Shown in pieces: positions 23,466-37,501 of a stretch of 64,000 nt of DNA (positions are counted from its first letter, which is position 1; each line of letters starts with the position of its first letter). The notes below the pieces were generated by a model. The model made no database searches, had not been told where the DNA came from, and worked only from the letters and a program-made list of their open reading frames with translations. The translations under genes were made by a program, and so were the position numbers. The stretch covers positions 830,124-894,123 of the forward strand of contig CP107220.1 in the NCBI GenBank assembly GCA_025757685.1, in the 5' to 3' direction. Source of the DNA: Oscillospiraceae bacterium (GTDB taxonomy: Bacteria > Bacillota > Clostridia > Oscillospirales > Acutalibacteraceae).

Positions 23466-24950
23466 ATGGAAAAGTATTTGATCAATCCCAACCAGCGGAT
23501 CGCCACCATCAGCAAGGACATTTACGGCCATTTCAGCGAGCATTTGGGTCGCTGCATTTATGACGGCATTTTTGTAGGCAAAGACTCTAAAATTCCCAAC
23601 GTGAACGGTATGCGCACCGATGTGGTCACGGCGCTGAAAGACATGGGCATTCCTGTGCTGCGCTGGCCCGGCGGCTGCTTTGCCGACGAGTACCACTGGA
23701 CGGACGGTATCGGCGAACAGAAGGATCGTAAAAAGATGATCAACACCCACTGGGGCGGTGTGGTGGAGGACAACTCCTTTGGCACCCACGAGTATTTTGA
23801 GCTCATCCGCCAGCTGGGGTGTGACGCTTATGTAAACGGCAATGTAGGCTCCGGCTCCGTGCGGGAGATGAACGAGTGGGTCGAATATATGACCTTTGAC
23901 GGCGTATCACCTATGGCGGACCTGCGGAAAAAGAATGGTGCCGATAAGCCCTGGAAGCTGCGCTACTTTGGCGTTGGCAACGAGAGCTGGGGCTGCGGCG
24001 GCCACATGAACGGCGATTACTATGCGGACGAGTTCCGCCGCTACAACACTTATGTGCGGGATTATACTGCCGGTGAGCATATTTACCGTGTGGCCTGCGG
24101 TCCCAATGCTTTTGACTTCAAATGGACGGAGCAGGTGATGCGCAAGGTGCCCGGCCAGGCGGACGGTCTGTCGCTCCACTACTACACCGTACCTTATAAT
24201 TGGGATCACAAAGGCTCTGCCACAGAGTTTAATTTGAAAGATTATGACCGTACGGTGGCCAAGGCCTACCGTATGGAGGAGCTGGTTCGCCGCCATACAG
24301 AGATTATGAATGCCCTGGACCCCCAAAAGCGGGTGGATCTGATCGTAGACGAATGGGGTACCTGGTTTGATGTGGAACCGGGCACCAATCCGGGCTTTCT
24401 GTACCAACTAAACACCATGCGAGACGCTATGGTGGCTGCGCTGACTTTGAATATTTTCAACAAGCACGCTGACCGGGTACAGATGGCGAATATTGCGCAG
24501 ACGGTGAATGTACTGCAAGCAGTGATCCTAACCGAAGGGGACAAGATGGTGTTGACCCCCACATACCATGTGTTTAAGATGTATAAGGACCACCAACAAA
24601 ACACATTGATCGGCTCCTACCTTACCAACAGCAATACCGTAGAGTGCGAGGAGTGCAGTGCACCCCAGATGATCGAGTCCGCCTCTGTGGACGAGAACGG
24701 CGCCATTTACGCCACGGTCACCAACATCAGCGCCACCAAAAAGGCCAAGATCAAGTGTCAGATCGCCGATACCAAAGTTTCTACCTTACATGCCGAAATT
24801 CTTACCGGAGATATGCACGACAAAAATGACTTTTCCAACCCGGGCGCGGTTCAGGTGCGTCCCTTTGACGGTGTACGTAAGCTGTCCGATGGTTTTGTAG
24901 CTGAACTGCCCCCTTGCAGTGTAGTAAAGTTCGTTATAAACGAAAAATAA
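23466..24950 (+). CDS. Alpha-L-arabinofuranosidase, GH51
   Basis: [14 protein letters not shown] and [11 protein letters not shown] motifs. The start was moved to the ATG at 23466. Confidence 0.85.
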
Positions 24951-25204
24951 TGGAGGAGCTTTGCAAACGCTGTCTGCTGTATGAGGCAGGGGAACGAGCA
25001 GCCTATACACAGGTGCAAGCATATTTGGAAACCGTGCCACCGGAAGAACTGGCAAGTCCGATTGTGCGGAACAGTCGCCTAAGCCAATGCCGTCATTGCG
25101 ACCAGCTGATCGCCGGTATGTGTCGCAAATGTGGCTGCTATGTGGAGGTTCGCGCAGCACTGAAAGACAGTACTTGCCCCCATACAGAGGGCAGAATGTG
25201 GTGA
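24950..25204 (+). CDS. Small Cys-rich (zinc-ribbon-like) protein
   Basis: 84 aa with CxxC, CxxC and CxxCxC motifs. Its start overlaps the GH51 stop (TAATG). Confidence 0.45.
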   Translation: MEELCKRCLLYEAGERAAYTQVQAYLETVPPEELASPIVRNSRLSQCRHCDQLIAGMCRKCGCYVEVRAALKDSTCPHTEGRMW

Positions 25205-25255
25205 TTCACGCCGACTTGAACGAATTCAGGTCGGCTTTTTCTATGGGCTGCTTGA

Positions 25256-26536
25256 ATGAAACGCCTTTTCCTTGCCCATACTTTGGGTATGAGATTTTAT
25301 GAAAAGAGCGGACGATGGCTGCAAGCTCTATGGGGCGCGTTCTGCGTTGTGGCTGTCCTATTGGCCCTTTGCCAGTTGCTGCAGATCAGCGAGGATTTAT
25401 GGAATCATCCATGGAGCAGCATAGCTGCAACCTTTGCCAGACAGGCGGAAAAAATGGCGCCTTATTTAATTGCCTTTGCTTTGCCGTATCATCTGTTACC
25501 AGGGAGTCGCACCAAGTGCGGGGTGTGGAGCGCCCTGAGTTACGGCCTGTTTACTGCTTTGTTTACCGCTGTTACGAACAGCGAACCAGGATTACTGTGG
25601 CCGATCCTGTTGGGTCTGGCGACGGTGCTATGCGTAGATAGAGTAGGGGAGAAGCAAGGGCTATTGCTGCTGCCCGTGATGACGCTGGCGCTTGCCGGTC
25701 TCTTGGGTGCTGCGCACGGTTATTATGAGAATGCGCTCCTGTGGCTGCTGGGTAAGCTAGGGAGTAGTACCGCCGTTTCCGGCGTAGTCTTCGGCGTCTT
25801 GAATACACTTTTGCGCCCGTTGTCCGGGGCGTTTGAACAGCCGGTGTATCTGCACAGCGCCGGTGGCGCCGTGTGGTTGGACGACCAGATCTTAACCGGC
25901 GCCAAGAACATTTTTGCCGCCAAGCCGGATAGTTTGGCAACCGCGCTATTTTTGTCCGGCAAAGGGCTGCAACTGTTCTTGTTGCCCGGGTTTGCATTAA
26001 CTCTGGCCGACTGCGGCAAGACGCGCAGCAAAGCCGCACTGGCGCTGTTCATCGCCGGGTGTGTACTCAGCGGTCATACGGAACTTTTTACCTTATTTTT
26101 GGCGCTGGAAAGTCCGTTTTTGCTGCTGGCCTTTGCCGGACTGACCGGCGGATGCTATTTGGTGTCTGTGCTGCTGGGTCTCCACTGGGGATTTTTGCAG
26201 AATGGGGGAATCGTGGAGTTTCTCCTGCACAACAGCAGCGGCGCACTGCCGTATCTTTTGGGCGTGACATTTTGCGTGCTGGCATATTTTGTCAGCCGGT
26301 ACACCGTGGTACGCTACGGCATTGCGGAACACAGCTGCGTTTGGCTGCCGAAAGATCTGCGCCCACTGGTACAGGAACTGGGCGGTCTACAAAACATTCT
26401 TGCCATTGAAAATGATGGTGTGCAGGTGCGCAATAGCAAGCGAGTAAACACTTTGCTCCTGGAGGGAGAACTGAAGGAAGATCGCTTTATAACCGATGAT
26501 CCGCAGATACAGACACTAAAAGAATATCTGCTGTAA
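25256..26536 (+). CDS. PTS EIIC-like membrane protein with a degenerate C-terminal EIIB-like segment
   Basis: Multi-TM. GHTELFTLFLALESPFLLLAFAGLTG lines up with the glucose-family GITEP...LTG motif. The C-terminal LGGLQNILAIENDGVQVRN resembles the EIIB LGGKENI..C.TRLR motif but lacks the Cys. Confidence 0.5.
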   Translation: MKRLFLAHTLGMRFYEKSGRWLQALWGAFCVVAVLLALCQLLQISEDLWNHPWSSIAATFARQAEKMAPYLIAFALPYHLLPGSRTKCGVWSALSYGLFTALFTAVTNSEPGLLWPILLGLATVLCVDRVGEKQGLLLLPVMTLALAGLLGAAHGYYENALLWLLGKLGSSTAVSGVVFGVLNTLLRPLSGAFEQPVYLHSAGGAVWLDDQILTGAKNIFAAKPDSLATALFLSGKGLQLFLLPGFALTLADCGKTRSKAALALFIAGCVLSGHTELFTLFLALESPFLLLAFAGLTGGCYLVSVLLGLHWGFLQNGGIVEFLLHNSSGALPYLLGVTFCVLAYFVSRYTVVRYGIAEHSCVWLPKDLRPLVQELGGLQNILAIENDGVQVRNSKRVNTLLLEGELKEDRFITDDPQIQTLKEYLL

Positions 26537-26645
26537 AGAATTTGATCTAAACAGAAAACAGCATATAAACGCCTTATCCACAGGAAAAACGCTTTTCCAT
26601 TTGAAAGGTCAGTCGGTGGCAGAAGATTCATACTCAAAAAAGAAA

Positions 26646-26684
26646 ATCGCAAAAGGCACCGATGTGGTACCTTTTGCGATTTTC
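26646..26684 (+). terminator. Intrinsic terminator after the EIIC-like gene
   Basis: 15-bp stem ATCGCAAAAGGCACC / GGTACCTTTTGCGAT with one mismatch, followed by TTT. Confidence 0.65.
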
Positions 26685-26704
26685 ATATTGTTCAGAACAG
26701 GGGC

Positions 26705-26733
26705 TTGCATTTTTCTTTTGAATTTGCTATAAT
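26705..26733 (+). promoter_or_regulatory. Junction promoter at attL (host -35, -10 inside the repeat)
   Basis: TTGCAT, a 17-nt spacer, then TGc-TATAAT at 26728-26733, reading into the prophage left end. Confidence 0.35.
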
Positions 26734-26750
26734 TATACAAAATTAATATT
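26725..26750. repeat. Left 26-bp direct repeat (attL core)
   Basis: TGCTATAATTATACAAAATTAATATT, identical to 33722-33747. Confidence 0.9.
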
Positions 26751-26760
26751 CTGCCCTCAT

Positions 26761-26798
26761 AAAATGCACAAAAGGGGAGAGCCTTGCGGCTCTGCCCC
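26761..26798 (-). terminator. Minus-strand intrinsic terminator
   Basis: On the minus strand the sequence reads GGGGcAGAGCC-gcaa-GGCTCTCCCC followed by TTTTGTGCATTTT. It lies 18 nt after the stop of the 27-codon ORF. Confidence 0.6.
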
Positions 26799-26816
26799 TC
26801 GTGTGTCAGTTGGTCG

Positions 26817-26900
26817 TTATCGGAATAGGATTTCAAACTTCCAGCTGATCTTTTTGATTGCCCTGCCTGCCAGCAGGGCTTTTATTATTGCCCGGAACAC
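26817..26900 (-). CDS. Candidate 27-aa basic amphipathic peptide
   Basis: GTG start 8 nt after a perfect AAGGAGG. The peptide is (M)FRAIIKALLAGRAIKKISWKFEILFR, and the ORF is followed by its own terminator. Confidence 0.3.
   Translation of the reverse strand: MFRAIIKALLAGRAIKKISWKFEILFR
26860..26889 (+). terminator. Plus-strand intrinsic terminator
   Basis: GCCCTGC-ctgcca-GCAGGGC followed by TTTTATTATT. No T-run follows it on the other strand. Confidence 0.6.
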
Positions 26901-27100
26901 TCTTTTCACCTCCTTGCAGTCCCAGGTAGCGAACTTGAAATTGGCAAGCGTGCGTGCGCTGTCGCTCGTCGCTTGCATAGTCCGTTGGAAGTAGGCCGGG
27001 TGCGGCAAGTCAAGGGAGAAAAGCAAAAAGTCTGCAACAAGGCATAAGGAAGAGTTTTTGCGTACCCTTTACTTGTCGTACCAGGTCTGCTATATAACAC

Positions 27101-27131
27101 AAAAGCACCCCCTCCTGGGGGTGCTTTTTTT
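27101..27131. terminator. Bidirectional intrinsic terminator
   Basis: AAAA-GCACCCCC-tcct-GGGGGTGC-TTTTTTT. Confidence 0.75.
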
Positions 27132-27143
27132 ATTATTCGGTTG

Positions 27144-27209
27144 TTATTTTAATCGTGCGTAGCAAAATGCAGCTATTAGCATTGATATAAAAATTGCTAA
27201 AGCCTTCAT
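27144..27209 (-). CDS. Candidate 21-aa hydrophobic peptide downstream of the XRE gene
   Basis: A GGAAG RBS directly follows the XRE stop codon. The peptide is MKALAIFISMLIAAFCYARLK. The bidirectional terminator follows. Confidence 0.4.
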   Translation of the reverse strand: MKALAIFISMLIAAFCYARLK

Positions 27210-27222
27210 TATTCACTTCCTT

Positions 27223-27414
27223 TCACTGTTTTCTCATATACCTGATGATTTCATCATCTGGTATCCCTAATACGGATATTGCTTTTTTTATAGTCTCTAA
27301 TGTGGTCTTGTCCTCGTCTTTCTCTATTCGTTGGTACTGTCTTGCTGAAATGCCTATCATTTCTGCCGTCTGTTCTTGTGTGTATCCTTTGTTTTGTCTG
27401 TATTCCTTTAGCAT
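27223..27414 (-). CDS. XRE-family helix-turn-helix transcriptional regulator (phage repressor-like)
   Basis: MLKEYRQNKGYTQEQTAEMIGISARQYQRIE is a typical HTH_XRE N-terminus. A GGTGA RBS lies 5 nt before the ATG at 27414. The longer GTG start at 27465 lacks an RBS. Confidence 0.8.
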   Translation of the reverse strand: MLKEYRQNKGYTQEQTAEMIGISARQYQRIEKDEDKTTLETIKKAISVLGIPDDEIIRYMRKQ

Positions 27415-27458
27415 TTTAATCACCGTATATATTCTCTCATATTGATTTAATGTGCACC

Positions 27459-27547
27459 ACGACACTGTATGTCGTTTATTTTGAATTTTCTATTGACATT
27501 TGATGTCGTGTCTGTTAATAATGAATTGTAACGACACGATGTGTCGT
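27459..27547. promoter_or_regulatory. Divergent control region with three ACGACA/TGTCGT operator-like sites and a forward promoter
   Basis: ACGACA-N5-TGTCGT lies at 27459-27475. A TGTCGT half-site at 27504-27509 lies inside the promoter spacer. A perfect ACGACAC-GAT-GTGTCGT lies at 27531-27547. The promoter is TTGACA (27493-27498), a 17-nt spacer, then TAATAA (27516-27521). Confidence 0.55.
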
Positions 27548-27891
27548 ACTGCTGGAGTGATCCAGTACATGGCCGCCTCCGGGGAAGCCCCTATCTTCCC
27601 CGGGTGTTCGGCTTAGGAGGTGGTTTTATCCTTAGTCAGTATGATATAGAAACTGTAAAGGCGTTGCGTGATAGGGAGTGTTACCGTCTTGCACTTGATA
27701 TGTGCATTGACTTGTATAGTGACCTTTCGGTTACGCATGAAGTGGCTTTTAAGTTTCTGAGTGATAATGGCTTGCTTACTCATTGTTATAGGGACTTTGA
27801 GTTAGTACAGTTACAAGATAATGCCGAAAAGTGGCAATCAATTCTTAATTCATTCGATTTTGGAGGTTGTAAAAATGGTAGCAACGATTAA
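27541..27891 (+). CDS. Hypothetical phage protein (start uncertain)
   Basis: The open frame runs from a GTG inside the operator palindrome. The first 75 nt or so are GC-rich hairpins. The only strong RBS (AGGAGG, 27615-27620) precedes an in-frame ATC at 27628. Confidence 0.4.
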   Translation: MSYCWSDPVHGRLRGSPYLPRVFGLGGGFILSQYDIETVKALRDRECYRLALDMCIDLYSDLSVTHEVAFKFLSDNGLLTHCYRDFELVQLQDNAEKWQSILNSFDFGGCKNGSND

Positions 27892-28096
27892 AGGACAGTT
27901 CCTGGAGCAGGGTACATTTAACCGAAAGACCGGCGAAACGGTCGCGTATAGTGAGGTTTTGTGTGAGGATAATACGGTGGTGCAAATCAACGACTATATC
28001 CCGCCTGCCGGTACAAAGAAGTTTGATCCGGTCAATATCCGGGTAAAAATTCATTCAACAAAATTCGGCTTGCTGATCCGTAACGCGGATAAGTAA
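27875..28096 (+). CDS. Small phage protein, positional candidate for an ssDNA-binding (gV-like) protein
   Basis: 73 aa with a GGAGG RBS 7 nt upstream. It is soluble and beta-rich-looking and sits early in the operon. The function is inferred only from size and position. Confidence 0.45.
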   Translation: MVATIKGQFLEQGTFNRKTGETVAYSEVLCEDNTVVQINDYIPPAGTKKFDPVNIRVKIHSTKFGLLIRNADK

Positions 28097-28117
28097 TATA
28101 CCACCATAGTAAAGGAA

Positions 28118-29266
28118 GTGTCAGCAGTGAAACAGAAAGTAACCCCTTTCCTCTCCGTCCTGCTGGCACTTTCTTTTCTTATGCCTGCCGCTCTGTTTGC
28201 AAAGCCGATAGAAGCCCAGGCGGCACAATTTACTGCTAGTCCTACTTATGTCCGTGTAAGTGATGATAACGCATATAATAGTAAAACTTCGACTTGGACT
28301 TTTGGTGGGGACGGTAATAATAATAATCCTATTCCTGTTACGGATATTACATGGGGACGTCAACAAAACTGCGCTATGGTATCTACGATTGCGTTTTGTG
28401 GCACGACTTCTAAAAAGGTAGATGCGGGCGATACTATTAATGTTAAAGCCCAAATTTCCCTTTATGATTATGATGATGCTGGGTACAATATGTACTTTTG
28501 TATTTTCAATTCTGCGGGTAAACAGCTGATTACTCCGCGGCTGATGGATAAGTCCGGGTCTCGTAACTTCAAGCTATCTGTGAAGATTGCTAATGATGTT
28601 GAAGGGTATTTTGGCTTTATATCTGGAAAACTGACTTATGATTCATCAAGTGGAAGTTCTCATGTATTTACTGCTCGTATTATTAATTGGAATGTAGAAT
28701 GTGAGCCTGGTGAAGTAGGCTTTTGGAACGCAGTAAAAGAAGCCCTTACCAATGTGCTTACTTGGCTTAAAGAAATTCGTGATAAGATTGTAAATGGTTT
28801 TAATGATCTTGGTAAATTGATTTCTAATCAGTTTTCCAATCTTGTTAAAAATGTACAGTCTATGATTGATAGTGTCAATAAGTGGCTGTCAGACACCTTG
28901 GATAATATCAAGCAGTTTATGTCCAATGTAGGCAAGTGGTTTACAAACCTTGGTAATTCTATATCCGGCTTTTTTGAAAAGCTGTGGAATAGGATATGGT
29001 GGGGTAATGAGAACGGAGAGAGTGAGTATGTAAAGCCGACGATCAGCAATAAGTTGCTTGATATTCTCGCCACTCTCCAGGATTACCAAGAGAAGCTAAA
29101 ATCTACTATTGACACTATCGGCTCCGCTGCCAGTGATGTAGCAAACTATATCTCTGCTGGTACTTCCTTTGTCAATGGTGTTGTGGGTGTAACCGGTGCC
29201 GGATTTACTGCACTCATTGTCTTTGGTATCGTCTTTGTCCTGGTGCGAAAGGTGGTAGGTCGGTGA
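28118..29266 (+). CDS. Secreted, C-terminally anchored phage protein (pIII-like adsorption/minor coat candidate)
   Basis: Signal peptide ending AQA, an N-terminal domain, repeated amphipathic helices, and the C-terminal TM GFTALIVFGIVFVLVRKVVGR. Confidence 0.55.
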   Translation: MSAVKQKVTPFLSVLLALSFLMPAALFAKPIEAQAAQFTASPTYVRVSDDNAYNSKTSTWTFGGDGNNNNPIPVTDITWGRQQNCAMVSTIAFCGTTSKKVDAGDTINVKAQISLYDYDDAGYNMYFCIFNSAGKQLITPRLMDKSGSRNFKLSVKIANDVEGYFGFISGKLTYDSSSGSSHVFTARIINWNVECEPGEVGFWNAVKEALTNVLTWLKEIRDKIVNGFNDLGKLISNQFSNLVKNVQSMIDSVNKWLSDTLDNIKQFMSNVGKWFTNLGNSISGFFEKLWNRIWWGNENGESEYVKPTISNKLLDILATLQDYQEKLKSTIDTIGSAASDVANYISAGTSFVNGVVGVTGAGFTALIVFGIVFVLVRKVVGR

Positions 29267-29493
29267 AGTACATTATTGATTATATTATCGTCTTTACGGA
29301 CTGGCTTATTACCGCCATTAAAGATATTTTACTGCTCTTGTGGAACGTAATATTGATCGTGGTGGAAGCAGGGAAGTTTTTAATCTCCGTAGTTACTTCA
29401 CTTCCCGCTTTGGTTACTGTGCCTGCTGTGGCTTTGGTCGTTGCTTGTGTTCTGTATAAAGTCCTCGGTCGAGAGGGGGGAGAAGCAAGCTAA
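29263..29493 (+). CDS. Two-TM small phage membrane protein (pVI-like candidate)
   Basis: GTGA overlap with the upstream gene. 76 aa with two hydrophobic helices. Confidence 0.55.
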   Translation: MKYIIDYIIVFTDWLITAIKDILLLLWNVILIVVEAGKFLISVVTSLPALVTVPAVALVVACVLYKVLGREGGEAS

Positions 29494-29636
29494 TGGAAGA
29501 TCTTGCAAGCCTGTTTGGTCAAGGCTTTTCTATACTGTGGAATGCAAAACTTCTTGGTATGCCTATTATGTTTTGGTTTGTTCTTGTAGCCATATTTGGT
29601 ATTATCGGTAGTTTTTTGAAAGGTAAGAAAGAATGA
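29493..29636 (+). CDS. 47-aa coat-like single-TM protein
   Basis: Not in the ORF track. TAATG overlap upstream and ATGA overlap downstream. The peptide is MEDLASLFGQGFSILWNAKLLGMPIMFWFVLVAIFGIIGSFLKGKKE. Confidence 0.55.
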   Translation: MEDLASLFGQGFSILWNAKLLGMPIMFWFVLVAIFGIIGSFLKGKKE

Positions 29637-30157
29637 AAAAGAAGTTAGTTTTTATCGTATCTCTGCTGCTTGCACTGTCTATACCGTCAGTAGCCTATGC
29701 AGAGGAATACGGAAATACATATCCGGCTTATGTGCCGGTGTCGGGAGGTGCGTATATTGAGGTTCAGTGTGCCCTTGGGCGTGGGACGCTTGTCTTTGCG
29801 CGTGAGTACAAAGACGGTTATTTTGGCTTTTACGGCAGTGGCTATAGCCCTGCTAATATATCGCGTAGTACCATCAATGGCACCTACTATACGGCAGCTG
29901 GTGCAAAATATAATGCAAGGGTAAATGCAATGGGTGAAGCCCAGTATTATCGTGAGACAAGTACACGGTATGAATGGACAAACCTTAATGTCTCTAAAAT
30001 CTATAATACTAATGTGAAGTTTGAGGACTTTAAAGATGATCGTGCTAATATCATTGATTTGTTTTCTTATGATCCTGTTACTTATCTCTGGCTGGCTTGT
30101 ACTGTCGTTATAATCCTGCTGCTGATGTATATTGCTTGGAGGAGTTCTTGTGATTGA
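29633..30157 (+). CDS. Secreted, C-terminally anchored phage protein
   Basis: Signal peptide ending VAYA, Tyr/Gly-rich ectodomain, C-terminal TM. Confidence 0.55.
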   Translation: MKKKLVFIVSLLLALSIPSVAYAEEYGNTYPAYVPVSGGAYIEVQCALGRGTLVFAREYKDGYFGFYGSGYSPANISRSTINGTYYTAAGAKYNARVNAMGEAQYYRETSTRYEWTNLNVSKIYNTNVKFEDFKDDRANIIDLFSYDPVTYLWLACTVVIILLLMYIAWRSSCD

Positions 30158-30299
30158 GTATTTTACTAAATTGATAGGGGAGTGTCCCAGCTATCTTTAT
30201 GGCGTGGTGTATGTACTCTCTTTCTTCTTGGTCGTTTTTGGCCTGTATGTCATATTGACATTGATAAAAGTGTTTTTCAGTCCTTTTTTTAAGGGTTAG
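30150..30299 (+). CDS. 49-aa single-TM phage protein
   Basis: Not in the ORF track. The GTG start lies 5 nt after GGAGGAG and overlaps the upstream stop. Confidence 0.5.
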   Translation: MIEYFTKLIGECPSYLYGVVYVLSFFLVVFGLYVILTLIKVFFSPFFKG

Positions 30300-30313
30300 T
30301 GAGGTGATAATAT

Positions 30314-30499
30314 ATGCCCTTGTCTGTGATTGCTATGGAAGTAACTTCCGCTGCTGACGCTATTACGGAGTTTACTTCTGTTTTTACCAAAGCCTGGACT
30401 TTTTTGACCGGAAATTGGTACTTTCTCGCTTTAATTTGCGTGCCCTTGGGTGCTTTGCTTCTTTCTACAATTCTGGGCTTTATTCGGAGTAGAACCTAA
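30314..30499 (+). CDS. 61-aa coat-like protein (paralogue family with 31382 and 31689)
   Basis: GAGGTGA RBS. It starts MP, has an amphipathic N-terminus and one TM helix, and ends in the basic tail IRSRT. Confidence 0.6.
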   Translation: MPLSVIAMEVTSAADAITEFTSVFTKAWTFLTGNWYFLALICVPLGALLLSTILGFIRSRT

Positions 30500-30669
30500 T
30501 GGTTGCCGAATGTTTTAACAAAGCCATTGAATTTATAACAATAACAGCTGAAGCTTGGTTTTCTCTTGTTATTGATGAGTGGCCGTTGTTCCCTTGGTTC
30601 CTGCTTGGCTTTGCTGGGTTCTTGCTTTTGGTGGTACTTCGTTTCGTACTCCGAAAGGTGTATAGATAA
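30499..30669 (+). CDS. 56-aa coat-like single-TM protein
   Basis: Not in the ORF track. TAATG overlaps at both ends, with the basic tail LRFVLRKVYR. Confidence 0.5.
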   Translation: MVAECFNKAIEFITITAEAWFSLVIDEWPLFPWFLLGFAGFLLLVVLRFVLRKVYR

Positions 30670-31340
30670 TGTTATATAACACATTTGATGATACTATTAT
30701 GGAGCCTATCGGCTGGCTGTTTGAAGTGCTTAGTGGTGTGCTATATTTGCCGTTCCAATTCAATGAAGATACGATAATTGCCGGACTGATCGTCATTACA
30801 CCGATCGCAGCCGGTGCCTTGTGTTTGATCATTGATTGGGTCTTTGATGTCCGGGATGAGTTCAGTAACTTCCACCGCTTGGAAGATTATACTTCTTCAT
30901 TTCGGCAGCACTTCCAGCGCTATGGCCGACCTCGGCAGAGTAGGGTAGACCTCAAAGCATTAAAGGAATACCAAGACTATAAGCATAATCAAGCTATGGA
31001 GTTGCAAGAAAAGAAGCACGCATATACTCATGACTATCTGCAACAGCAGATGGCGCATACAAAAATCAAAAACGCTATGCAAACGGAGCAGTCTACGCGC
31101 TTCTCCCAAAACATAGATAAGTTGAAAAACTATCAAGAATACAAGTTTGGTAAACAGCAGGAAGCACTAAATTTCTTCCAGTCGGTGGCTGCTCAGTATC
31201 AAAATCATAGTAGTTCTCCGGCTGCGCTTCACGGCGGTTCTGCTTTGCCTGCCGTTCCTGCTTCGTACAAACCGAAAAGGGTCAATGGCGCTCCTGTTCC
31301 TCCCGGTAACCACCCTGAGTTGGATATTGAGGTGGATTGA
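30669..31340 (+). CDS. Phage membrane protein with a Gln/Lys-rich cytoplasmic or extracellular domain
   Basis: 223 aa with N-terminal TM helices and then a polar Q/K/Y-rich region. I recognise no motif. Confidence 0.5.
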   Translation: MLYNTFDDTIMEPIGWLFEVLSGVLYLPFQFNEDTIIAGLIVITPIAAGALCLIIDWVFDVRDEFSNFHRLEDYTSSFRQHFQRYGRPRQSRVDLKALKEYQDYKHNQAMELQEKKHAYTHDYLQQQMAHTKIKNAMQTEQSTRFSQNIDKLKNYQEYKFGKQQEALNFFQSVAAQYQNHSSSPAALHGGSALPAVPASYKPKRVNGAPVPPGNHPELDIEVD

Positions 31341-31381
31341 GCACATGACATACAGAGACTATAAAGAAAGGAGAAAATGCA

Positions 31382-31624
31382 ATGCCTGTTATTCTTGCTG
31401 ATACTGGTGCCGCAGGTGGCGTGAGTCTTGCTACTCTTGATACGCTGATCACTGGCATTAAATCGGCTATTGCTTGGATCTTTAGCTTGTTTGCTCGGAT
31501 CGTTAGCACGATCTCTACAAACGATTTGCTGCTGTATCCTGTGCTGCTGTGTATGGTGATTGCAGCTGTTACGCTTGCAATCCGCATTGTTCGTAAGTTT
31601 GGTATGAAGTCCCGCCGGTCTTAA
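31382..31624 (+). CDS. 80-aa major-coat-like protein, copy 1
   Basis: AAAGGAG RBS. The central VSTISTNDLLLYPVLL segment is followed by a TM helix and the basic tail RKFGMKSRRS. Confidence 0.6.
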   Translation: MPVILADTGAAGGVSLATLDTLITGIKSAIAWIFSLFARIVSTISTNDLLLYPVLLCMVIAAVTLAIRIVRKFGMKSRRS

Positions 31625-31688
31625 CCCGTGAGGGCGGCTTGTCCGCCTCCGGGTTGGACCGTATCAGTATTTAGAAAGGAGTTAATAT

Positions 31689-31931
31689 ATGCCTGTTTCT
31701 GCTGCATTGACCGCAGCGATTACTACAAGTGACATTTTCAGCAGTATGACTACTGTCTTTGAGCTGCTGATGGATCAGTTTACCACGACTGTATCTACGA
31801 TCACAAGTAATCCTTTGCTGTTCGTGCCTGTCCTCTGCGGATTTGGCGGTGGCCTAATTATGGCCGGCGTTAAAGTCGTTCGTAAGCTGGGCGTGCGCGG
31901 TATGGGCGGTCGGCGCCGCCGCCGCGGTTAA
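31689..31931 (+). CDS. 80-aa major-coat-like protein, copy 2
   Basis: AAGGAG RBS. VSTITSNPLLFVPVL is followed by a TM helix and the tail RKLGVRGMGGRRRRRG. It is a paralogue of 31382-31624. Confidence 0.6.
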   Translation: MPVSAALTAAITTSDIFSSMTTVFELLMDQFTTTVSTITSNPLLFVPVLCGFGGGLIMAGVKVVRKLGVRGMGGRRRRRG

Positions 31932-31941
31932 ATCTTAAATA

Positions 31942-31972
31942 TAGGCGTGGTAGGGGCACGCCTTATTTTTTT
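31942..31972 (+). terminator. Intrinsic terminator directly after the coat-like genes
   Basis: AGGCGTG-gtagggg-CACGCCT followed by TATTTTTTTT. Confidence 0.7.
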
Positions 31973-31987
31973 TGGAGTGATTAACTT

Positions 31988-32143
31988 ATGGAATTTATTA
32001 AAACGCTGTTTCAGCTGTTCAATTACCTTTTTCAATCCGCTTTTGTATTTTCCCCTTTTATACTTCTTTTTACTTCCTTGGGTGTGCTTCTCGTCCTTTC
32101 TGCGGCTCTACAATCATTTTTTAGGGGGTACTACAAGAAGTGA
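31988..32143 (+). CDS. 51-aa single-TM protein overlapping the pI-like gene start
   Basis: Not in the ORF track as such. A GGAGTGA RBS lies 8 nt upstream. The peptide is MEFIKTLFQLFNYLFQSAFVFSPFILLFTSLGVLLVLSAALQSFFRGYYKK. Its stop overlaps the GTG at 32140. Confidence 0.5.
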   Translation: MEFIKTLFQLFNYLFQSAFVFSPFILLFTSLGVLLVLSAALQSFFRGYYKK

Positions 32144-32847
32144 ATTTGTTTAATAAGAAAATCGCCAAACATAGCTTAGAGCCTTATTGTGTGATCGTTA
32201 CAGGCGATAGGGGAGTAGGTAAGTCTACTTTGTTCGCTCTTATTGTAGAAGCAGCTAAGAAAGAGGGCTTGGATGTATTCTGTCAATTCCCTTATAAAGA
32301 TTGTTACCAAATCCCACTTACATATATCACTAAGAAAGGCTATACCTACTTGGATATAGATAAACAGTGGCTATACTCTCACGACTTTAACCACTGTGTA
32401 CTCTTAATTGATGAAGCTAAAACCGTTTGGCCTGCTCGTGGCTATGCTGATTGGACAATGCAAGATGAACAGTTCTTTAACTTCCTCCGTAAAAATGATA
32501 TTCATTTATTCGCTGCTACACAAGCGTATGATGGTCTTGACCTTAATGTAAAGCGTGCTGCTGATGAAGTGTGGTATCTCACCCAGTTCTTTTGGCATTT
32601 TACACATATCGAATCAAGCCATACAACACTCTGTAAGGTCGCAGATAAACAAACCGAGGTGCAAGGCCGTATGTTTAAAAAAGGTATGAGAAAAGTAGCC
32701 TGGGATGTCTGTGAAGTACCTTTGAAAAACTTCTTGTTTTGGCGTAAGAGTTATTATGGTAGCTTCATTTCCAACTTTGTATTTGGAGAAAAGCCAAAGC
32801 CGCAGCTGGAAAGCTGGAACGATACGCCAGTGTTCAAATCTCTTTAA
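32140..32847 (+). CDS. pI/Zot-like phage morphogenesis ATPase
   Basis: Walker A is VTGDRGVGKST and Walker B is VLLIDEAKTVW. This block and FFNFLRKNDIHLFAATQ align by eye with the Ff pI segments VTGKLGAGKT, LLVLDECGTWF and IIDWFLHARKLGWDIIFLVQ. Confidence 0.7.
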   Translation: MNLFNKKIAKHSLEPYCVIVTGDRGVGKSTLFALIVEAAKKEGLDVFCQFPYKDCYQIPLTYITKKGYTYLDIDKQWLYSHDFNHCVLLIDEAKTVWPARGYADWTMQDEQFFNFLRKNDIHLFAATQAYDGLDLNVKRAADEVWYLTQFFWHFTHIESSHTTLCKVADKQTEVQGRMFKKGMRKVAWDVCEVPLKNFLFWRKSYYGSFISNFVFGEKPKPQLESWNDTPVFKSL

Positions 32848-32849
32848 GT

Positions 32850-32883
32850 CTTATAATATAGTAAGATTATACTAGATTATAAG
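32850..32883. other. 34-nt AT-rich imperfect hairpin between the pI-like and rep genes
   Basis: CTTATAAT-a-TAGTA-agatta-TACTA-g-ATTATAAG. Confidence 0.5.
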
Positions 32884-32943
32884 ATGTCTATTTTATTTCT
32901 CTTGTCTATTGCTCAAATAAGAACCAAATAGGGGGTGTTTTTT

Positions 32944-33699
32944 ATGGAGCGGAAGGTACCTAAACGCAGGATAGAAAAGATAGTTATAAGCGGTAATGTG
33001 ATAGAATATTACAGGTATCAGAAGCCCCTAAATGTAGAACCGCGTGAGCATGATATAGAAAAGAATAGAGAGACCTCGGAGGGAAAAAGAGATCGGAATT
33101 TATACCGTGCCCGTGCTGATCTACGCCGGGCGATATGGTGCAATACAACAGATTATACTAAGTTTGTGACACTTACATATAAAGATACAGTTTTAGATCA
33201 AGATCAAGTTTTATATGATTGGAAGCAATTTATTAAAAATTTAAGACGAAAAGGATATAAAGTCCCTTATGTTTACATTACGGAGCACCAAAAGAAAAGG
33301 GGACTAAAAGAAGGCAATGAAGGGTGCTTGCATATTCACGCTGTGCTTTTCACAGATGACTTTATCAGCGCTGATGTGATTAACGCCTGCTGGGGTAAAG
33401 GTCGTACAGAGATTAAAGCACTTCGGTCAATCAAAAACCTTGGCGCTTATGTCTGCAAATATCTAACAAAAGAAGAGTTTGACCTTTACCATAAACATAG
33501 CTACCACTTGTCGCGCGGTTTGAAAAAGCCGGAGGTGCTGACAACTGATGGCTATATAGGTCAGTGGCGTGATATGTACTCGAATATTCACGAAAATACA
33601 AAAGTAATTTATAGCAACGCAACGGAATTTGTTTACGCCGGAGCAGATGGCAGTATTCAATCAAATACCATTCTTTATGAGCAGGGTATATTTAAGTAG
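32944..33699 (+). CDS. HUH-superfamily rolling-circle replication initiator
   Basis: Motif 1 is FVTLTY, motif 2 is CLHIHAVLF (HUH) and motif 3 is GAYVCKYLTKE (catalytic Tyr). An AGGGGG RBS precedes the ATG at 32944. Confidence 0.7.
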   Translation: MERKVPKRRIEKIVISGNVIEYYRYQKPLNVEPREHDIEKNRETSEGKRDRNLYRARADLRRAIWCNTTDYTKFVTLTYKDTVLDQDQVLYDWKQFIKNLRRKGYKVPYVYITEHQKKRGLKEGNEGCLHIHAVLFTDDFISADVINACWGKGRTEIKALRSIKNLGAYVCKYLTKEEFDLYHKHSYHLSRGLKKPEVLTTDGYIGQWRDMYSNIHENTKVIYSNATEFVYAGADGSIQSNTILYEQGIFK

Positions 33700-33701
33700 G
33701 G

Positions 33702-33730
33702 TTGACTATAGGTGAAAATAATGCTATAAT
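33702..33730 (+). promoter_or_regulatory. Near-consensus promoter spanning the phage end and the repeat, reading toward the xer gene
   Basis: TTGACT (33702-33707), a 17-nt spacer ending in TGc, then TATAAT (33725-33730). Confidence 0.5.
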
Positions 33731-33747
33731 TATACAAAATTAATATT
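33722..33747. repeat. Right 26-bp direct repeat (attR core)
   Basis: Identical to 26725-26750. Confidence 0.9.
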
Positions 33748-33756
33748 TTGTATAAT
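33729..33756. other. dif-like 28-bp recombination-site candidate
   Basis: ATTATACAAAA-TTAATA-TTTTGTATAAT, with perfectly inverted 11-bp arms around a 6-bp centre, 17 bp upstream of the recombinase start. Confidence 0.5.
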
Positions 33757-33773
33757 TCAGGGGAGTTGATACA

Positions 33774-34763
33774 GTGAAAAAAGCGGAATTTGGGCAATTA
33801 CCCATGCCCGTACAGGACTATCTGTTGTATTTGGAGGCCATCAAAGGTCATAGCGAATTATCGGTGATCGAATATGCGTCGGATTTGCGCACCTTCTTTC
33901 GCTACCTTGCCAAGGAAAAAAATCTGTATCCGCCTGACACGCCGGACGATCAAATGGATCTACGACAAATCAATATGGACTTTATCAAGACCATTACACT
34001 GAGCGACGCCTACCAGTTCTTAATCTACTGCAAGAACCAACGCGGCAACGCGGAAGCCACCCGTGCGCGGCGTGTGATCGCCATACGGCGCTTTTTTATC
34101 TATTTAACGGACAACCGGCACTTGCTGGAGGAAAATCCAATGAAAGTGCTGGACGCGCCGAAAACAAAAAAAGCCCTTCCAAAGTACATGACCTTGGAAG
34201 AAGCACGCCATTTATTATCCGTTGTAGACGGCAAACACAAAGAGCGGGATTACGCCATTTTGACCTTACTTCTGAACTGCGGTATGCGACTGAGCGAGTT
34301 GGTGTCCATTGATTATAATGATATAAAATCAAACGATACATTGGTGATCACCGGTAAAGGCAACAAGGAGCGCACCGTGTACTTAAACGATGCTTGCAAA
34401 ACCGCCGTTACGGCCTATATGCGGGTGCGGCCGCACGACGGTGTAAAGGACAAAGCTTTATTTCTAAGCAGCCGCAACCAGCGGATCAGCCCCAAGACGG
34501 TACAACACATGGTGTACGCTTATTTGGACAAGGCCGGGCTGGGCGATCGAGGCTTGTCCGTGCATAAGCTGCGCCATACGGCAGCCACACTGATGTACCA
34601 AAATGGACATGTGGATCTGCTGCTGCTTAAAGAGATTCTGGGCCATGAAAACCTGGGTACTACGGAAATCTATACCCACATCAGCGACGACGCAGCCAAG
34701 GCCGCCATTGAGGCCAATCCCCTTGCCGATCTTAATGCGCCTAAATCGAGATCACAGAACTGA
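33774..34763 (+). CDS. xerD: XerC/XerD-family site-specific tyrosine recombinase (host-encoded)
   Basis: N-terminal SAM-like domain (YLLYLEAIKGHSELSVIEY). The catalytic residues are GMRLSEL (Arg), HKLRHTAAT (H-x-x-R) and LGHENLGTTEIYTH (His, Tyr). The gene lies outside the prophage repeats, and the spoIIM neighbour matches Bacillus ripX. I am less certain of the gene symbol than of the family. Confidence 0.8.
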   Translation: MKKAEFGQLPMPVQDYLLYLEAIKGHSELSVIEYASDLRTFFRYLAKEKNLYPPDTPDDQMDLRQINMDFIKTITLSDAYQFLIYCKNQRGNAEATRARRVIAIRRFFIYLTDNRHLLEENPMKVLDAPKTKKALPKYMTLEEARHLLSVVDGKHKERDYAILTLLLNCGMRLSELVSIDYNDIKSNDTLVITGKGNKERTVYLNDACKTAVTAYMRVRPHDGVKDKALFLSSRNQRISPKTVQHMVYAYLDKAGLGDRGLSVHKLRHTAATLMYQNGHVDLLLLKEILGHENLGTTEIYTHISDDAAKAAIEANPLADLNAPKSRSQN

Positions 34764-35373
34764 ACAAACTGGTCAGCCCTGCATTACATAAGGCGGCCAA
34801 CGCCACGAAAGCGGCGGAAATCAGATATTTTTTTAAATAATCCCGCACCTGAATTTCAGCGGGGGACTCCCCTGTTGCATCGTCTCGCTTGACGGACAGG
34901 TGAAAGATGGACTTGGACATATCGGTGCTGATTTTAATGGTGAGCATGACCACCGTCAGCAAAATAGAGGCCGCCGGAATCACCATCAGCACGCAAAACA
35001 GCACACCTTTCAGGCGAAAAGTCATATAATAGTAGCACACCTGCATACCAAAAGCAAAGCCGCAAGTCATGGGCACAAAATGAATTAGCGGAAAGCCGAT
35101 CATACAAAAGCCCAAAAAGACCGTTACCAAAAATATACTGAAATACAAACAAAAATCATTGAGAAACAGCTGTAAAAAGCGGTTCTCCCCTACTCTCAGC
35201 AGTGCGTTGACTGTGTCGGAGCGAATTTGACGGTACAGTACGCTGCCCAACGCTAACCCGCAGGTGTAAAATACCAGGGAATAGATGTAAGTTCTATGGG
35301 TCTCCCAGCGAAATGCGCGCAGCTCATCCGAAAACGCCGCCGCCAGGTCCCGCTTCTCCCGAGGCTCGCTCAT
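34741..35373 (-). CDS. spoIIM: Stage II sporulation protein M
   Basis: 210 aa with about 5 TM segments and the typical SpoIIM layout. The start was moved to the ATG at 35373, which overlaps the upstream stop (ATGA). Confidence 0.65.
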   Translation of the reverse strand: MSEPREKRDLAAAFSDELRAFRWETHRTYIYSLVFYTCGLALGSVLYRQIRSDTVNALLRVGENRFLQLFLNDFCLYFSIFLVTVFLGFCMIGFPLIHFVPMTCGFAFGMQVCYYYMTFRLKGVLFCVLMVIPAASILLTVVMLTIKISTDMSKSIFHLSVKRDDATGESPAEIQVRDYLKKYLISAAFVALAALCNAGLTSLFSSVISI

Positions 35374-35756
35374 AAGTGCACCCGCTTGTTGCTGACAACT
35401 GCCAGCGCAGCGCACACCGGCATACCCAGCAGGCGCAGTACCAATAAACCAGCGCCGGAAGGTGCCATACAGTAGTGTATCACCATTAGGACCATTGCAG
35501 GCACAATGGCAGCCAATGCCAATGGCAAGCGGCTGTTTTTCACCCCGCGAAGCGCCCATTTTGCAATGAGAAAGGCACAGAGAAAGTCGATCGCCGCACA
35601 GATATACGCGATCAGCTTAAAGTCCAGATCCAGTTTGTACACCACCAGTGCCCCTAAAGCGCAGCAAACACCAAAGCAGCACACGGTGGCCGCCGTAACA
35701 CGAAGCAGATAAAGCAGCAATACGGTTTTTGTTTTGCCTACCTGAATTTTTGGCAT
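35370..35756 (-). CDS. Hypothetical multi-TM membrane protein
   Basis: A GAGGGTGA RBS precedes the ATG at 35756. It has four hydrophobic helices and is translationally coupled to spoIIM. Confidence 0.5.
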   Translation of the reverse strand: MPKIQVGKTKTVLLLYLLRVTAATVCCFGVCCALGALVVYKLDLDFKLIAYICAAIDFLCAFLIAKWALRGVKNSRLPLALAAIVPAMVLMVIHYCMAPSGAGLLVLRLLGMPVCAALAVVSNKRVHL

Positions 35757-35846
35757 ACCATCACCCTCGCTATACCGTATGCGCCGCAAGTAAGGAATAG
35801 AACGAAAAAAGGACTGCTCTTTGAGCAGTCCTTTTTATAAGTGTGC

Positions 35847-36299
35847 TTATTTCTCGATTTTTTCCTCTGCCTCTTTGGCGGTGTCGGATTTCTCAGTCAA
35901 AGCATCGTCCTTATTCTTTTTGTTCTTCTTATTCTTGGCAGCTTCTCTGGCAGCTTCCACTTCCTTCTGGTGCTGCTCGGCTTTGGTCTTGTTGGTATTC
36001 ACAGCCCAGCGCTGGATCCGCATTTTGTTGCGATCAGCACCGGTCTCAATGATCAGATCCTCCTCGCGAATGGTGACCACTTTACCCACAATACCGCCGA
36101 TGGTGATGATCTCATCGCCAATCTCCAAAGAAGAACGCATCTCCTGCTCTTCCTTCTGGCGCTTTTTCTGGGGACGGATCATGGTAAAGTACATCAGTAC
36201 CACCATCACCAGCATCAAGATGATAAAGCTGTACTGGCTGGCGCCGCCCTTACCGGAAGCGCTGGCGCCGGCTGCGGCCTGTAACAAAATAAAGTTCAT
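35847..36299 (-). CDS. yajC: Preprotein translocase subunit YajC with a Lys/Glu-rich C-terminal extension
   Basis: TM helix followed by MIRPQKKRQKE and GDEIITIGGIVGKVV motifs. Confidence 0.8.
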   Translation of the reverse strand: MNFILLQAAAGASASGKGGASQYSFIILMLVMVVLMYFTMIRPQKKRQKEEQEMRSSLEIGDEIITIGGIVGKVVTIREEDLIIETGADRNKMRIQRWAVNTNKTKAEQHQKEVEAAREAAKNKKNKKNKDDALTEKSDTAKEAEEKIEK

Positions 36300-36364
36300 T
36301 TTAATTCCTCCTGAACATAGTACGACTATTATATTAAAATTTTAACCGAATTGCAAGTCCTTTT

Positions 36365-37501
36365 CTATATTCTGGTATCCAATTTCACACAATATTCAGA
36401 TTTGTACTGTGCAAAGCTGCCGTTATCCAACGCTTGTCTGATTTCTACCATTAAATTGTTGTAGAAATACAAATTGTGCATCACTGCCAGGCGCATACCA
36501 AGCATCTCCCCTGCCTTGAGCAGATGGCGAATGTAACCCCGACTGTACCGGCGGCACACCGGGCAATCGCACTTGGGATCAATCGGCTTGTCGTCCCGGG
36601 CATACTTGGCGTTGTTCAAATTGATAATGCCGTCCTTGGTAAACAGATGACCGTGGCGGGCGTTGCGGGAGGGCATAACGCAGTCAAACAGGTCTACGCC
36701 GCGGCTGACGCCCTCTAAAATATTACCGGGCGTGCCGACGCCCATTAAATACCGGGGTTTGTCCGCCGGCATATACGGCTCTACGGCGCTGATAATGCGG
36801 TACATATCCTCGGCCGGCTCCCCTACTGCCAGACCGCCGATGGCGTAGCCGTCGCAGTCCAGTTTAGCGATCTCCTGCATGTGCCATACCCGCAGATCGT
36901 CGTAAGTGCAGCCTTGGTTGATCCCAAACAGCAGCTGGTCTTTGTTAATGGTGCCCGGCAAGGCATTCAATCGCTCCATCTCTGCCTTGCAGCGCTCCAG
37001 CCAGCGCAGCGTGCGCGCGCAGGACTGCTTTGCGTAGTTGTAAGTGGCCGGGTTTTCCACGCACTCGTCAAAAGCCATGGCGATCGTAGATGCCAGATGG
37101 GACTGGATCTGCATGCTCTCCTCCGGACCCATAAAGATCTTCTTGCCGTTTACATGGGAATGGAAGGTGACGCCCTCTTCTTTAATCTGGTTCAACTTAG
37201 CCAGACTAAATACTTGGAACCCGCCGCTGTCTGTTAAAATCGGCCGCTTCCAGTCTGTAAAGTGGTGCAGACCGCCCATGTCCGCCACCAGATCGTCCCC
37301 GGGGCGCACATGCAGATGATAGGTGTTACACAGCATGACCTGACAACCGATATGCTCCAGATCCTCGGTGGACAAACCGCCTTTAATGGCCGCAGCGGTA
37401 GCTACATTCATAAACGCCGGCGTCTGTACCGTGCCGTGCACCGTTTCAAAGGTGCCGCGGCGGGCGTTGCCTTCTTTTTTTAATAAGGTATATTTTGCCA
37501 T
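36365..37501 (-). CDS. tgt: Queuine tRNA-ribosyltransferase
   Basis: 378 aa with TDSGGFQVFSL, GLAVGE and the zinc motif CDCPVC...H. Confidence 0.9.
   Translation of the reverse strand: MAKYTLLKKEGNARRGTFETVHGTVQTPAFMNVATAAAIKGGLSTEDLEHIGCQVMLCNTYHLHVRPGDDLVADMGGLHHFTDWKRPILTDSGGFQVFSLAKLNQIKEEGVTFHSHVNGKKIFMGPEESMQIQSHLASTIAMAFDECVENPATYNYAKQSCARTLRWLERCKAEMERLNALPGTINKDQLLFGINQGCTYDDLRVWHMQEIAKLDCDGYAIGGLAVGEPAEDMYRIISAVEPYMPADKPRYLMGVGTPGNILEGVSRGVDLFDCVMPSRNARHGHLFTKDGIINLNNAKYARDDKPIDPKCDCPVCRRYSRGYIRHLLKAGEMLGMRLAVMHNLYFYNNLMVEIRQALDNGSFAQYKSEYCVKLDTRI

Follow-up and report, generated by a model that had tools for sequence, protein, structure and literature searches.

A candidate small gene and a predicted convergent antisense RNA at the attachment-site end of a filamentous prophage

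Two convergent units at the left end of the prophage

We analyzed a 64,000-nucleotide stretch of DNA from an Oscillospiraceae bacterium (assembly GCA_025757685.1, contig CP107220.1, positions 830,124 to 894,123), referred to here as the window, whose coordinates are used throughout. Between positions 26725 and 33750, the window holds a ~7-kilobase AT-rich block of small genes that lie on the same strand and that, judged by its sequence, is a filamentous (inovirus-like) prophage residing in a dif-like site that overlaps the promoter of the host xer gene. The first ~160 nucleotides (nt) inside its left attachment site (attL) form a locus of two convergent small units, comprising a putative 27-codon gene on the minus strand, which we call orf27, and a predicted ~150-nt RNA on the plus strand. 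An initial annotation, made from the sequence alone, had read this segment either as a pair resembling a type I toxin-antitoxin (TA) module or as a structured phage intergenic region. The features of the locus, and those of the phage to which they relate, are as follows.

26705-26733, plus strand: promoter of the plus-strand RNA, with TTGCAT (26705-26710), a 17-nt spacer and a TG-extended -10 element, TGCTATAAT (26725-26733)
26725-26753, no strand: attL, a 29-nt repeat held in common with attR (33722-33750)
26731-26743: left arm of dif in attL, AATTATACAAAAT, followed by the center TAAT
26748-26760: degenerate phage arm of attL, ATTCTGCCCTCAT
26740-26889, plus strand: predicted RNA of ~150 nt with three hairpins (H1, H2 and H3), complementary to codons 4-27 and the 3' untranslated region of orf27
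26760-26798, minus strand: H1, intrinsic terminator of the minus-strand unit, with its stem at 26798-26774, then CCCCTTTTGTGCATTTT, the T-run extending to ~26760
26806-26848, plus strand: H2, hairpin TCAGTTGG...CCAGCTGA, covering the C-terminal codons and stop of orf27
26817-26900, minus strand: orf27, with a GTG start (26900-26898), 27 codons and a TAA stop (26819-26817), encoding (M)FRAIIKALLAGRAIKKISWKFEILFR
26860-26889, plus strand: H3, intrinsic terminator of the plus-strand RNA, GCCCTGC-CTGCCA-GCAGGGC plus the tail TTTTATTATT, inside codons 8-14 of orf27
26907-26915, minus strand: Shine-Dalgarno site of orf27, AAGGAGGTG, 8 nt before the start
26921-27130, plus strand: conserved structured block, with hairpins at 26944-26976 and ~26990-27088 (the latter imperfect, ~100 nt) and, at 27101-27128, a bidirectional terminator
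33703-33731, plus strand: the phage's own promoter copy, TTGACT-17-TATAAT

The layout described in the initial annotation can be read directly from the sequence: a -10 element within the attachment repeat with a plus-strand terminator ~150 nt further on, a Shine-Dalgarno site before a GTG-initiated 27-codon open reading frame (ORF), and a minus-strand terminator after that frame. The two units are predicted to overlap by ~130 nt (~128 nt had been claimed), with the plus-strand terminator hairpin lying inside the ORF. Both H3 on the plus strand and H1 on the minus strand have the GC-rich stem-loop and T-run of an intrinsic terminator on the transcribed strand only. Specifically, H3 is a 7-base-pair stem with six G-C pairs that a terminator scan listed on the plus strand alone, as had been claimed, and the H1 core was listed on the minus strand alone. 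The description of the segment as GC-richer and rich in hairpins was likewise borne out, with a GC fraction of 0.52 at 26750-27049 versus ~0.40 in the remainder of the element, and with 7 terminator-like sites in 26400-27700 versus 1.4 +/- 1.1 in shuffled sequences. Folding of both strands, which the initial annotation had proposed as a check, agrees with this picture: the plus-strand RNA folds at -55.3 kcal/mol (z = -5.0 versus shuffles) and the minus-strand RNA has z = -4.1. An Rfam 15 scan of 24000-37000 at E <= 1 returned no match over 26754-26900 on either strand.

Conservation of orf27 and of the plus-strand RNA

A degenerate pattern scan of metagenomes returned 24 matches, 22 of which are human-gut contigs that carry the phage (92-96% identical) at the identical host site and that present 14 distinct haplotypes of the segment. 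The other two (L023 and L033) were set aside as unrelated coding sequence. Diverged remnants were found in two sister species, in loci designated L006 (G004:C10) and L007 (G003:C51).

The pattern of variation among these copies suggests that orf27 is probably a genuine small gene. Its ribosome-binding site is complementary to 9 nt of the 3' end of 16S ribosomal RNA and forms an invariant island in all intact prophages, amid an indel-rich stretch. The spacer that follows occurs in five variants, all 8-10 nt long, and the start codon is GTG in some haplotypes and ATG in others. Across the 14 haplotypes no indel falls within the 27 codons; indels are found solely before the start or after the stop, including 1-nt and 3-nt indels just 3' of the stop codon. 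At the end of the frame, CGA TAA alternates with AAG TGA, a 3-nt change that keeps an arginine or lysine at position 27 and a stop. The remaining differences between intact prophages are synonymous or exchange isoleucine and leucine, and the I/L and R/K variants are seen in all four combinations. Of dinucleotide-shuffled versions of the 469-nt non-coding region, 3.5% contain a Shine-Dalgarno site, a start codon and an ORF of at least 25 codons together.

We applied a frame test in which the observed transitions and transversions are placed randomly on codons 4-27 and amino acid changes are counted. In the orf27 frame, too few amino acid changes are seen in each of four overlapping pairwise comparisons, which are window versus L006 (P = 0.002), window versus L007 (P = 0.03), the two main alleles (P = 0.026) and L006 versus L007 (P = 0.0006). 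The other five frames give P >= 0.10, including the plus-strand frame that shares third positions with orf27. At the level of sequence comparison, a deficit of amino acid changes specific to minus frame 0 shows purifying selection on 26817-26900, and we judge it likely that orf27 is translated. Two longer readings of the same DNA, a 69-amino-acid minus-strand ORF from TTG at 27026 and a 76-amino-acid plus-strand ORF at 26764-26994, were rejected; both are interrupted by frame-shifting indels between haplotypes, and neither exhibits a deficit of amino acid changes. Because the translations upstream of the orf27 start differ among haplotypes, the 69-amino-acid reading is not conserved.

The predicted peptide carries a net charge of +6, has a grand average of hydropathy of 0.62, and has lysine and arginine residues spread along its length. 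No transmembrane or hydrophobic segment is present in it, the highest 19-residue Kyte-Doolittle mean being 0.82. The earlier descriptions of the peptide as basic and as unlike a classic hydrophobic toxin are thus both sustained. Its description as amphipathic is not, given that the helical hydrophobic moment of 0.30 is equalled by 27% of shuffled peptides. Searches of orf27 against Pfam and NCBIfam gave no match at E <= 10. The gene lies downstream of the phage repressor gene, of a terminator (27128-27101) and of ~200 nt of structured RNA. Because of this position, and because no promoter of its own is seen, read-through of that terminator is probably the only visible source of orf27 mRNA, and 26921-27130 would then also serve as the 5' leader of any read-through transcript.

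The promoter and the H3 terminator of the plus-strand RNA are conserved in all copies. This RNA has the attributes expected of an antisense RNA, namely a promoter and a terminator of its own and full complementarity to the orf27 mRNA over ~130 nt, although at the sequence level only. Its hairpins vary in a strand-dependent manner. The H1 stem is kept in intact prophages, with a variable loop (TTGC, TTTC or TCGC), and the two H1 stem changes in L006 produce G.U on the minus strand and A.C on the plus strand. H3 is invariant in intact prophages, and its change in L007 gives U.G on the plus strand. H2 contains a one-sided C/T polymorphism at 26810 (6 versus 5 haplotypes) that yields U.G on the plus strand only. 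All five of the one-sided stem changes fit the strands to which the hairpins were assigned: those in H2 (two) and H3 (one) create G.U on the plus strand and A.C on the minus strand, and the two in H1 do the opposite.

The most telling case for the plus-strand RNA is an orphan copy in the sister species G003, where the RNA body has been kept alone under a new promoter. Homology in this contig (L007, 1095-1218) begins at H1 and stops where the H3 T-run ends, corresponding exactly to 26769-26892, and an unrelated promoter of near-consensus sequence, TTGACG-17-TGATACAAT, lies in front of it. The copy lacks the orf27 start and ribosome-binding site. No plus-strand ORF of at least 80 amino acids starts within ~900 nt past the RNA terminator and, because the next genes are on the opposite strand, there is nothing else for this promoter to serve.

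In G003, the orphan copy lies ~100 nt beyond the end of a CRISPR array (L007, 1-996), which has at least 15 repeats of 36 nt (GTTTGAGAATAGTGTGAATTCATAAGGTAGTAAAAG) separated by 30-nt spacers. The spacer at 811-840 matches phage rep at its 3' end, with 16/16 contiguous bases to L006 and ~24/30 to window positions 33625-33654. No cas genes were found on the sequenced side of the array, and the neighboring genes encode a HAD hydrolase, a Big_2 protein and a MatE transporter. A reading of the orphan copy as a tracrRNA or anti-repeat was rejected, since it has no complementarity to the 36-nt repeat and no adjacent cas genes. In G004, the remnant (L006, 4622-5175) is a 360-base-pair phage fragment that comprises the last 26 rep codons together with the promoter, attP and the segment as far as 26989. 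The fragment is not located at dif; a metallophosphoesterase gene and a tRNA gene flank it, and what appears to be a duplicated tRNA 3' end is adjacent.

The host site, its promoters and the adjacent structured block

The prophage encodes a Zot-like assembly ATPase (32140-32847), a rolling-circle Rep of the ORF2/G2P family (32935-33699) and a divergent XRE repressor on the minus strand (27465-27223). No integrase gene was found in the ~7-kilobase element. Its borders are a 29-nt direct repeat (26725-26753 and 33722-33750; one mismatch, 97% identity, spacing 6997). The attR copy belongs to a perfect palindrome, AATTATACAAAAT-TAAT-ATTTTGTATAATT, directly upstream of a gene for a Xer-type tyrosine recombinase (33774-34763), and the uninterrupted site in the sister species G001 and G003 reads ...GGGGCTTGCATTTTGCTTTTGAATTTGCTATAATTATACAAAAT-xxxx-ATTTTGTATAAT..GGGGAG..start of xer. 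The gene content, the attachment repeats, the palindrome beside xer and the uninterrupted sites are our reasons for assigning the element to an inovirus-like prophage in a dif-like site. The heptamer AGGGGAG occurs both at 26773-26779, a short way into the phage in the left arm of H1, and at 33759-33765, where it lies 3' of the right arm of the host dif and doubles as the xer ribosome-binding site.

The initial annotation did not see that the plus-strand promoter is the displaced promoter of host xer. The -35 element TTGCAT matches the consensus at only 3/6 positions, so the strength of this promoter rests on its TG-extended -10 element, and the weak -35 element is the reason why a consensus promoter scan overlooked it. 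In the empty sites of G001 and G003, dif and xer are immediately preceded by an identical promoter (TTGCAT-17-TGCTATAAT). This comparison identifies it as the native xer/dif promoter of the host, which integration has left at attL, facing the phage. It is retained in all attL junctions from the metagenomes.

The phage carries a promoter copy of its own at the opposite border, which would drive host xer in the lysogen and, in the circular form, would read across attP into 26754 and beyond. The phage-borne -35 element is kept in three lineages: the window, the diverged remnant L006 (TTGACA-17-TACGAT) and an attR junction in GenBank (MT839262.1). In one tandem array of elements (L030), the promoter position is occupied by TGTATAAT from the dif arm of a neighboring element. 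Taken together, the host copy, the phage copy and the tandem array suggest that in every context examined some promoter fires into the left end, and that H3 is the first plus-strand terminator that it would meet. Integration also exchanges the -35 element in front of host xer, as the native TTGCAT remains at attL and the phage TTGACT now precedes xer. Perhaps the prophage raises xer expression through this exchange.

Other elements occupy dif as well. Tandem arrays at dif are present in L030 (12160-13058, minus orientation) and in L073 (G020:C37, 160-2790). They include a second small element with a ~175-amino-acid tyrosine-recombinase-like protein (in G020 also a plasmid-type Rep), which separates the host flank from the phage, with further dif-like sites at its borders. 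The dif site beside xer in G004 holds a different element (L078, G004:C3, ~1270-1495), whose dif-adjacent end is an extremely GC-rich hairpin region (CCCCCCTCCCGTCCCCCCGCTGGGGGGAGCG...) like the structured region of the G020 phage.

Beyond the Shine-Dalgarno site of orf27 lies the structured block 26921-27130, in which the hairpin at 26944-26976 is a 7-base-pair GC hairpin. When 26740-27140 is folded as single-stranded DNA (ssDNA), z = -7.1, and the fold is dominated by the ~100-nt hairpin at ~26990-27088, which lies outside the segment covered by the initial annotation. In the circular form this structured region follows rep and attP, the position and hairpin content expected of a filamentous-phage intergenic region. 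An intergenic region is also expected to be free of protein-coding constraint, and this fails at 26817-26900, where minus frame 0 is under selection and the ribosome-binding site is kept. The earlier reading of the segment as a structured phage intergenic region accordingly probably holds for the neighboring 26921-27130 rather than for 26754-26920. The packaging signal and origin, if modeled folds are a guide, are probably better sought at 26921-27130 than in H1-H3. GC-rich, structured DNA likewise follows the dif-like site of phages that share 45-51% identity in Rep, and it shows no sequence similarity to that of the window phage. A search for an origin motif common to these Rep relatives (G020 and G255) found only the dif arms.

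Sequence diversity is 0.02-0.08 across 26760-27120 and 0.02-0.05 in 26921-27130, versus ~0.2 in the adjoining immunity region. The latter occurs in two alternative versions, and the order of repressor, terminator, structured block and orf27 is retained with both. The alternative immunity modules (window 27129-27615; L021 3105-3530, L026 and L029) reside in phages that are otherwise ~93% identical. One encodes an 80-amino-acid XRE repressor and a 21-codon ORF, and the other an unrelated 89-amino-acid XRE repressor. The exchanged stretch runs from the terminator at 27128 to near 27565-27615.

A six-frame peptide search of 400 genomes of the family found only three copies of the locus, all in one genus. 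The best other match, in G379, is an alternative frame of an unrelated gene. Seven 19-mer matches were returned by a scan of genome contigs, of which five, in unrelated phyla, were taken as chance and two are the G003 and G004 contigs. IMG/VR yielded neither an exact 19-mer nor a match to the back-translated SWKFEILF pattern, and a search there for Rep relatives was likewise negative. The phage records of INPHARED gave no match to 26754-27230, and the only nearby match there, MT839262.1, is merely an attR junction with host DNA.

Competing explanations and relation to known systems

These observations are consistent with a cis-antisense pair, in which a small basic-peptide gene is opposed by a ~150-nt RNA from the dif/xer promoter that also insulates the prophage; judged from sequence, we give this explanation an even chance of being correct. 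The locus would then be the attachment-site end of the regulatory region of a filamentous prophage. The first unit would be orf27, with a canonical ribosome-binding site and with H1 as its terminator; its small product would be strongly basic and not membrane-bound, and its mRNA would probably arise by read-through only. The second unit would be the plus-strand RNA, which would start at the displaced xer promoter in the left arm of dif in the lysogen, or at the phage's own promoter copy in the circular phage, and would end at H3 inside orf27. By ending there, H3 would stop transcription from the dif promoter before it enters the repressor gene in the antisense direction. Because the plus-strand RNA is fully complementary to most of the orf27 mRNA, it may repress orf27 through duplex formation or polymerase collision.

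Several observations weigh against this explanation. Covariation in related elements, a check proposed in the initial annotation, did not appear: RNAalifold found compensatory changes at 0/39 pairs among phages that are 92-96% identical and thus little diverged, and a claim of structure from covariation was rejected. Because of this null result, support for the structure is weak and comes from the five wobble-compatible changes, an outcome that coin-flipping would give ~1 time in 32 if the strand assignments were fixed beforehand. The pairwise frame simulations share data and are not independent of each other. The non-conservative changes in orf27 (L>R, G>C and G>D) fall in the codons that form the H3 loop and show that this part of orf27 is constrained by the hairpin rather than by the peptide. 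No sigma-A-type promoter was found on the minus strand from 27100 to 26917, so orf27 may be barely expressed. The module appears from our searches to be confined to one genus. Finally, the plus-strand RNA could be a mere by-product of terminating the dif promoter.

The layout recalls the type I TA modules of clostridia. Their toxins are described as small, hydrophobic and equipped with a transmembrane domain and a charged C-terminus; they are often prophage-borne, with antitoxin genes that overlap convergently (PMC6563280). Like the prophage modules of Firmicutes (C. difficile CD2517.1-RCd8 and CD0956.2-RCd10; B. subtilis txpA/RatA and bsrG/SR4), the locus combines an ORF of fewer than 60 amino acids in a prophage with a convergent antisense RNA, which has a promoter and terminator of its own, and with an extended overlap at the 3' ends (PMC6563280). 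If it were a true addiction or abortive module, orf27 would be toxic, the plus-strand RNA would be an unstable antitoxin, and the pair would stabilize the prophage or exclude competitors. This is improbable in our judgment, despite the ~130-nt convergent 3' overlap shared with the C. difficile modules (PMC6563280), the prophage location and the coding signature of so short an ORF. Unlike the known toxins, the orf27 peptide is basic, with its charges spread throughout, has no transmembrane or hydrophobic domain and has no sequence relation to any of them; it matches no Pfam or NCBIfam family. No promoter for orf27 is visible, and the antisense RNA would depend on the host xer/dif promoter or, in the circular form, on the phage's copy of it. 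The orphan copy beside a CRISPR array in G003 does recall the type I TA modules adjacent to CRISPR in C. difficile (PMC5961336), but it is one case only, and the ORF start has been lost there. Because the defining property of the toxin is absent, though layout and location fit, membership among type I TA systems is not supported. Of the TA-like pair proposed initially, the convergent layout with a coding signature and with a conserved promoter and terminator stands; the toxin half is not supported, as its peptide has no hydrophobic segment and matches no family, and no promoter of its own is visible. Layout alone should not be used to annotate this locus as a type I TA module.

Two further explanations dispense with a functional antisense pair. 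The hairpins might be DNA elements of the packaged plus strand, such as a packaging signal, a minus-strand origin or Xer accessory sites, with the ORF and the transcription units incidental. The order of rep, attP and structured region in the circular form, the ssDNA fold, the conservation of the whole 26760-27120 block and the similarly structured DNA of the Rep relatives would all suit such a role, and the wobble changes in H2 and H3 suit plus-strand DNA equally well. We nonetheless regard it as unlikely. It does not account for the coding signature specific to minus frame 0 or for a Shine-Dalgarno island that is invariant amid indels; the H1 changes are tolerated only on the minus strand, which would never be ssDNA in the phage life cycle; the chromosomal copy in G003 has its own promoter and terminator where ssDNA functions are meaningless; and the longest hairpins lie elsewhere, at 26944-27088. 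Alternatively, the locus could be purely a transcriptional insulator, in which H3 stops read-through from dif/xer, H1 stops minus-strand read-through into dif, orf27 is not usefully expressed and the antisense overlap is non-regulatory. Integration unavoidably aims the host xer promoter at the phage, a second plus-strand terminator (27101-27131) also stands before the repressor gene in the antisense direction, and the lack of an orf27 promoter fits this view. We consider it a doubtful account, because it leaves unexplained the frame-specific conservation, the retained ribosome-binding site with GTG or ATG, the stop-to-stop change, the ~100 nt of conserved H1 and H2 ahead of the terminator, and the RNA body under a new promoter in G003.

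The cis-antisense pair resembles in outline the OOP RNA of phage lambda, a short terminator-ended antisense RNA that is convergent into the 3' part of the small phage gene cII and lowers its expression. The window phage is of an unrelated type and exhibits no homology to that system, and its predicted antisense RNA starts at the attachment site and spans almost all of the ORF. In its mode of integration the phage resembles the filamentous phages among the integrative mobile elements exploiting Xer (IMEX), such as CTXphi, VGJphi and TLCphi, and the single-recombinase XerS/difSL system: it is filamentous, lacks an integrase, integrates at dif beside a Xer gene, and has a dif-like attP with one degenerate arm. 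It differs in having a Gram-positive gut Oscillospirales host and in that dif overlaps the xer promoter, which is why this promoter becomes re-aimed at the phage. To our knowledge, neither a small-gene/antisense pair at the attachment-proximal end nor a host xer promoter re-aimed at the phage, together with a replacement xer promoter brought by the phage, has been described for IMEX phages.

A more elaborate form of antisense control can be imagined from the sequence arrangement. The plus-strand promoter overlaps the Xer-binding arm of dif, and after integration the weaker host TTGCAT drives the antisense RNA. The -35 exchange and Xer occupancy of the dif arm could thereby set the level of RNA against orf27, and hence of the peptide, according to integration state, and the G003 orphan could be an antisense RNA captured by the host, which would silence orf27 in incoming phages as a form of RNA-based immunity. 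We view this combined proposal as highly improbable.

Filamentous phages of Gram-positive gut anaerobes are, as far as we know, almost unstudied, and their regulatory regions unannotated. The locus described here offers a concrete and testable small gene, overlooked by gene callers because at 84 nt it is too short, and it also supplies a candidate regulatory RNA. If antisense control proves true, host Xer/dif biology would be linked to phage gene expression; if it proves false, the locus would still be a tidy example of terminators insulating the end of a prophage.

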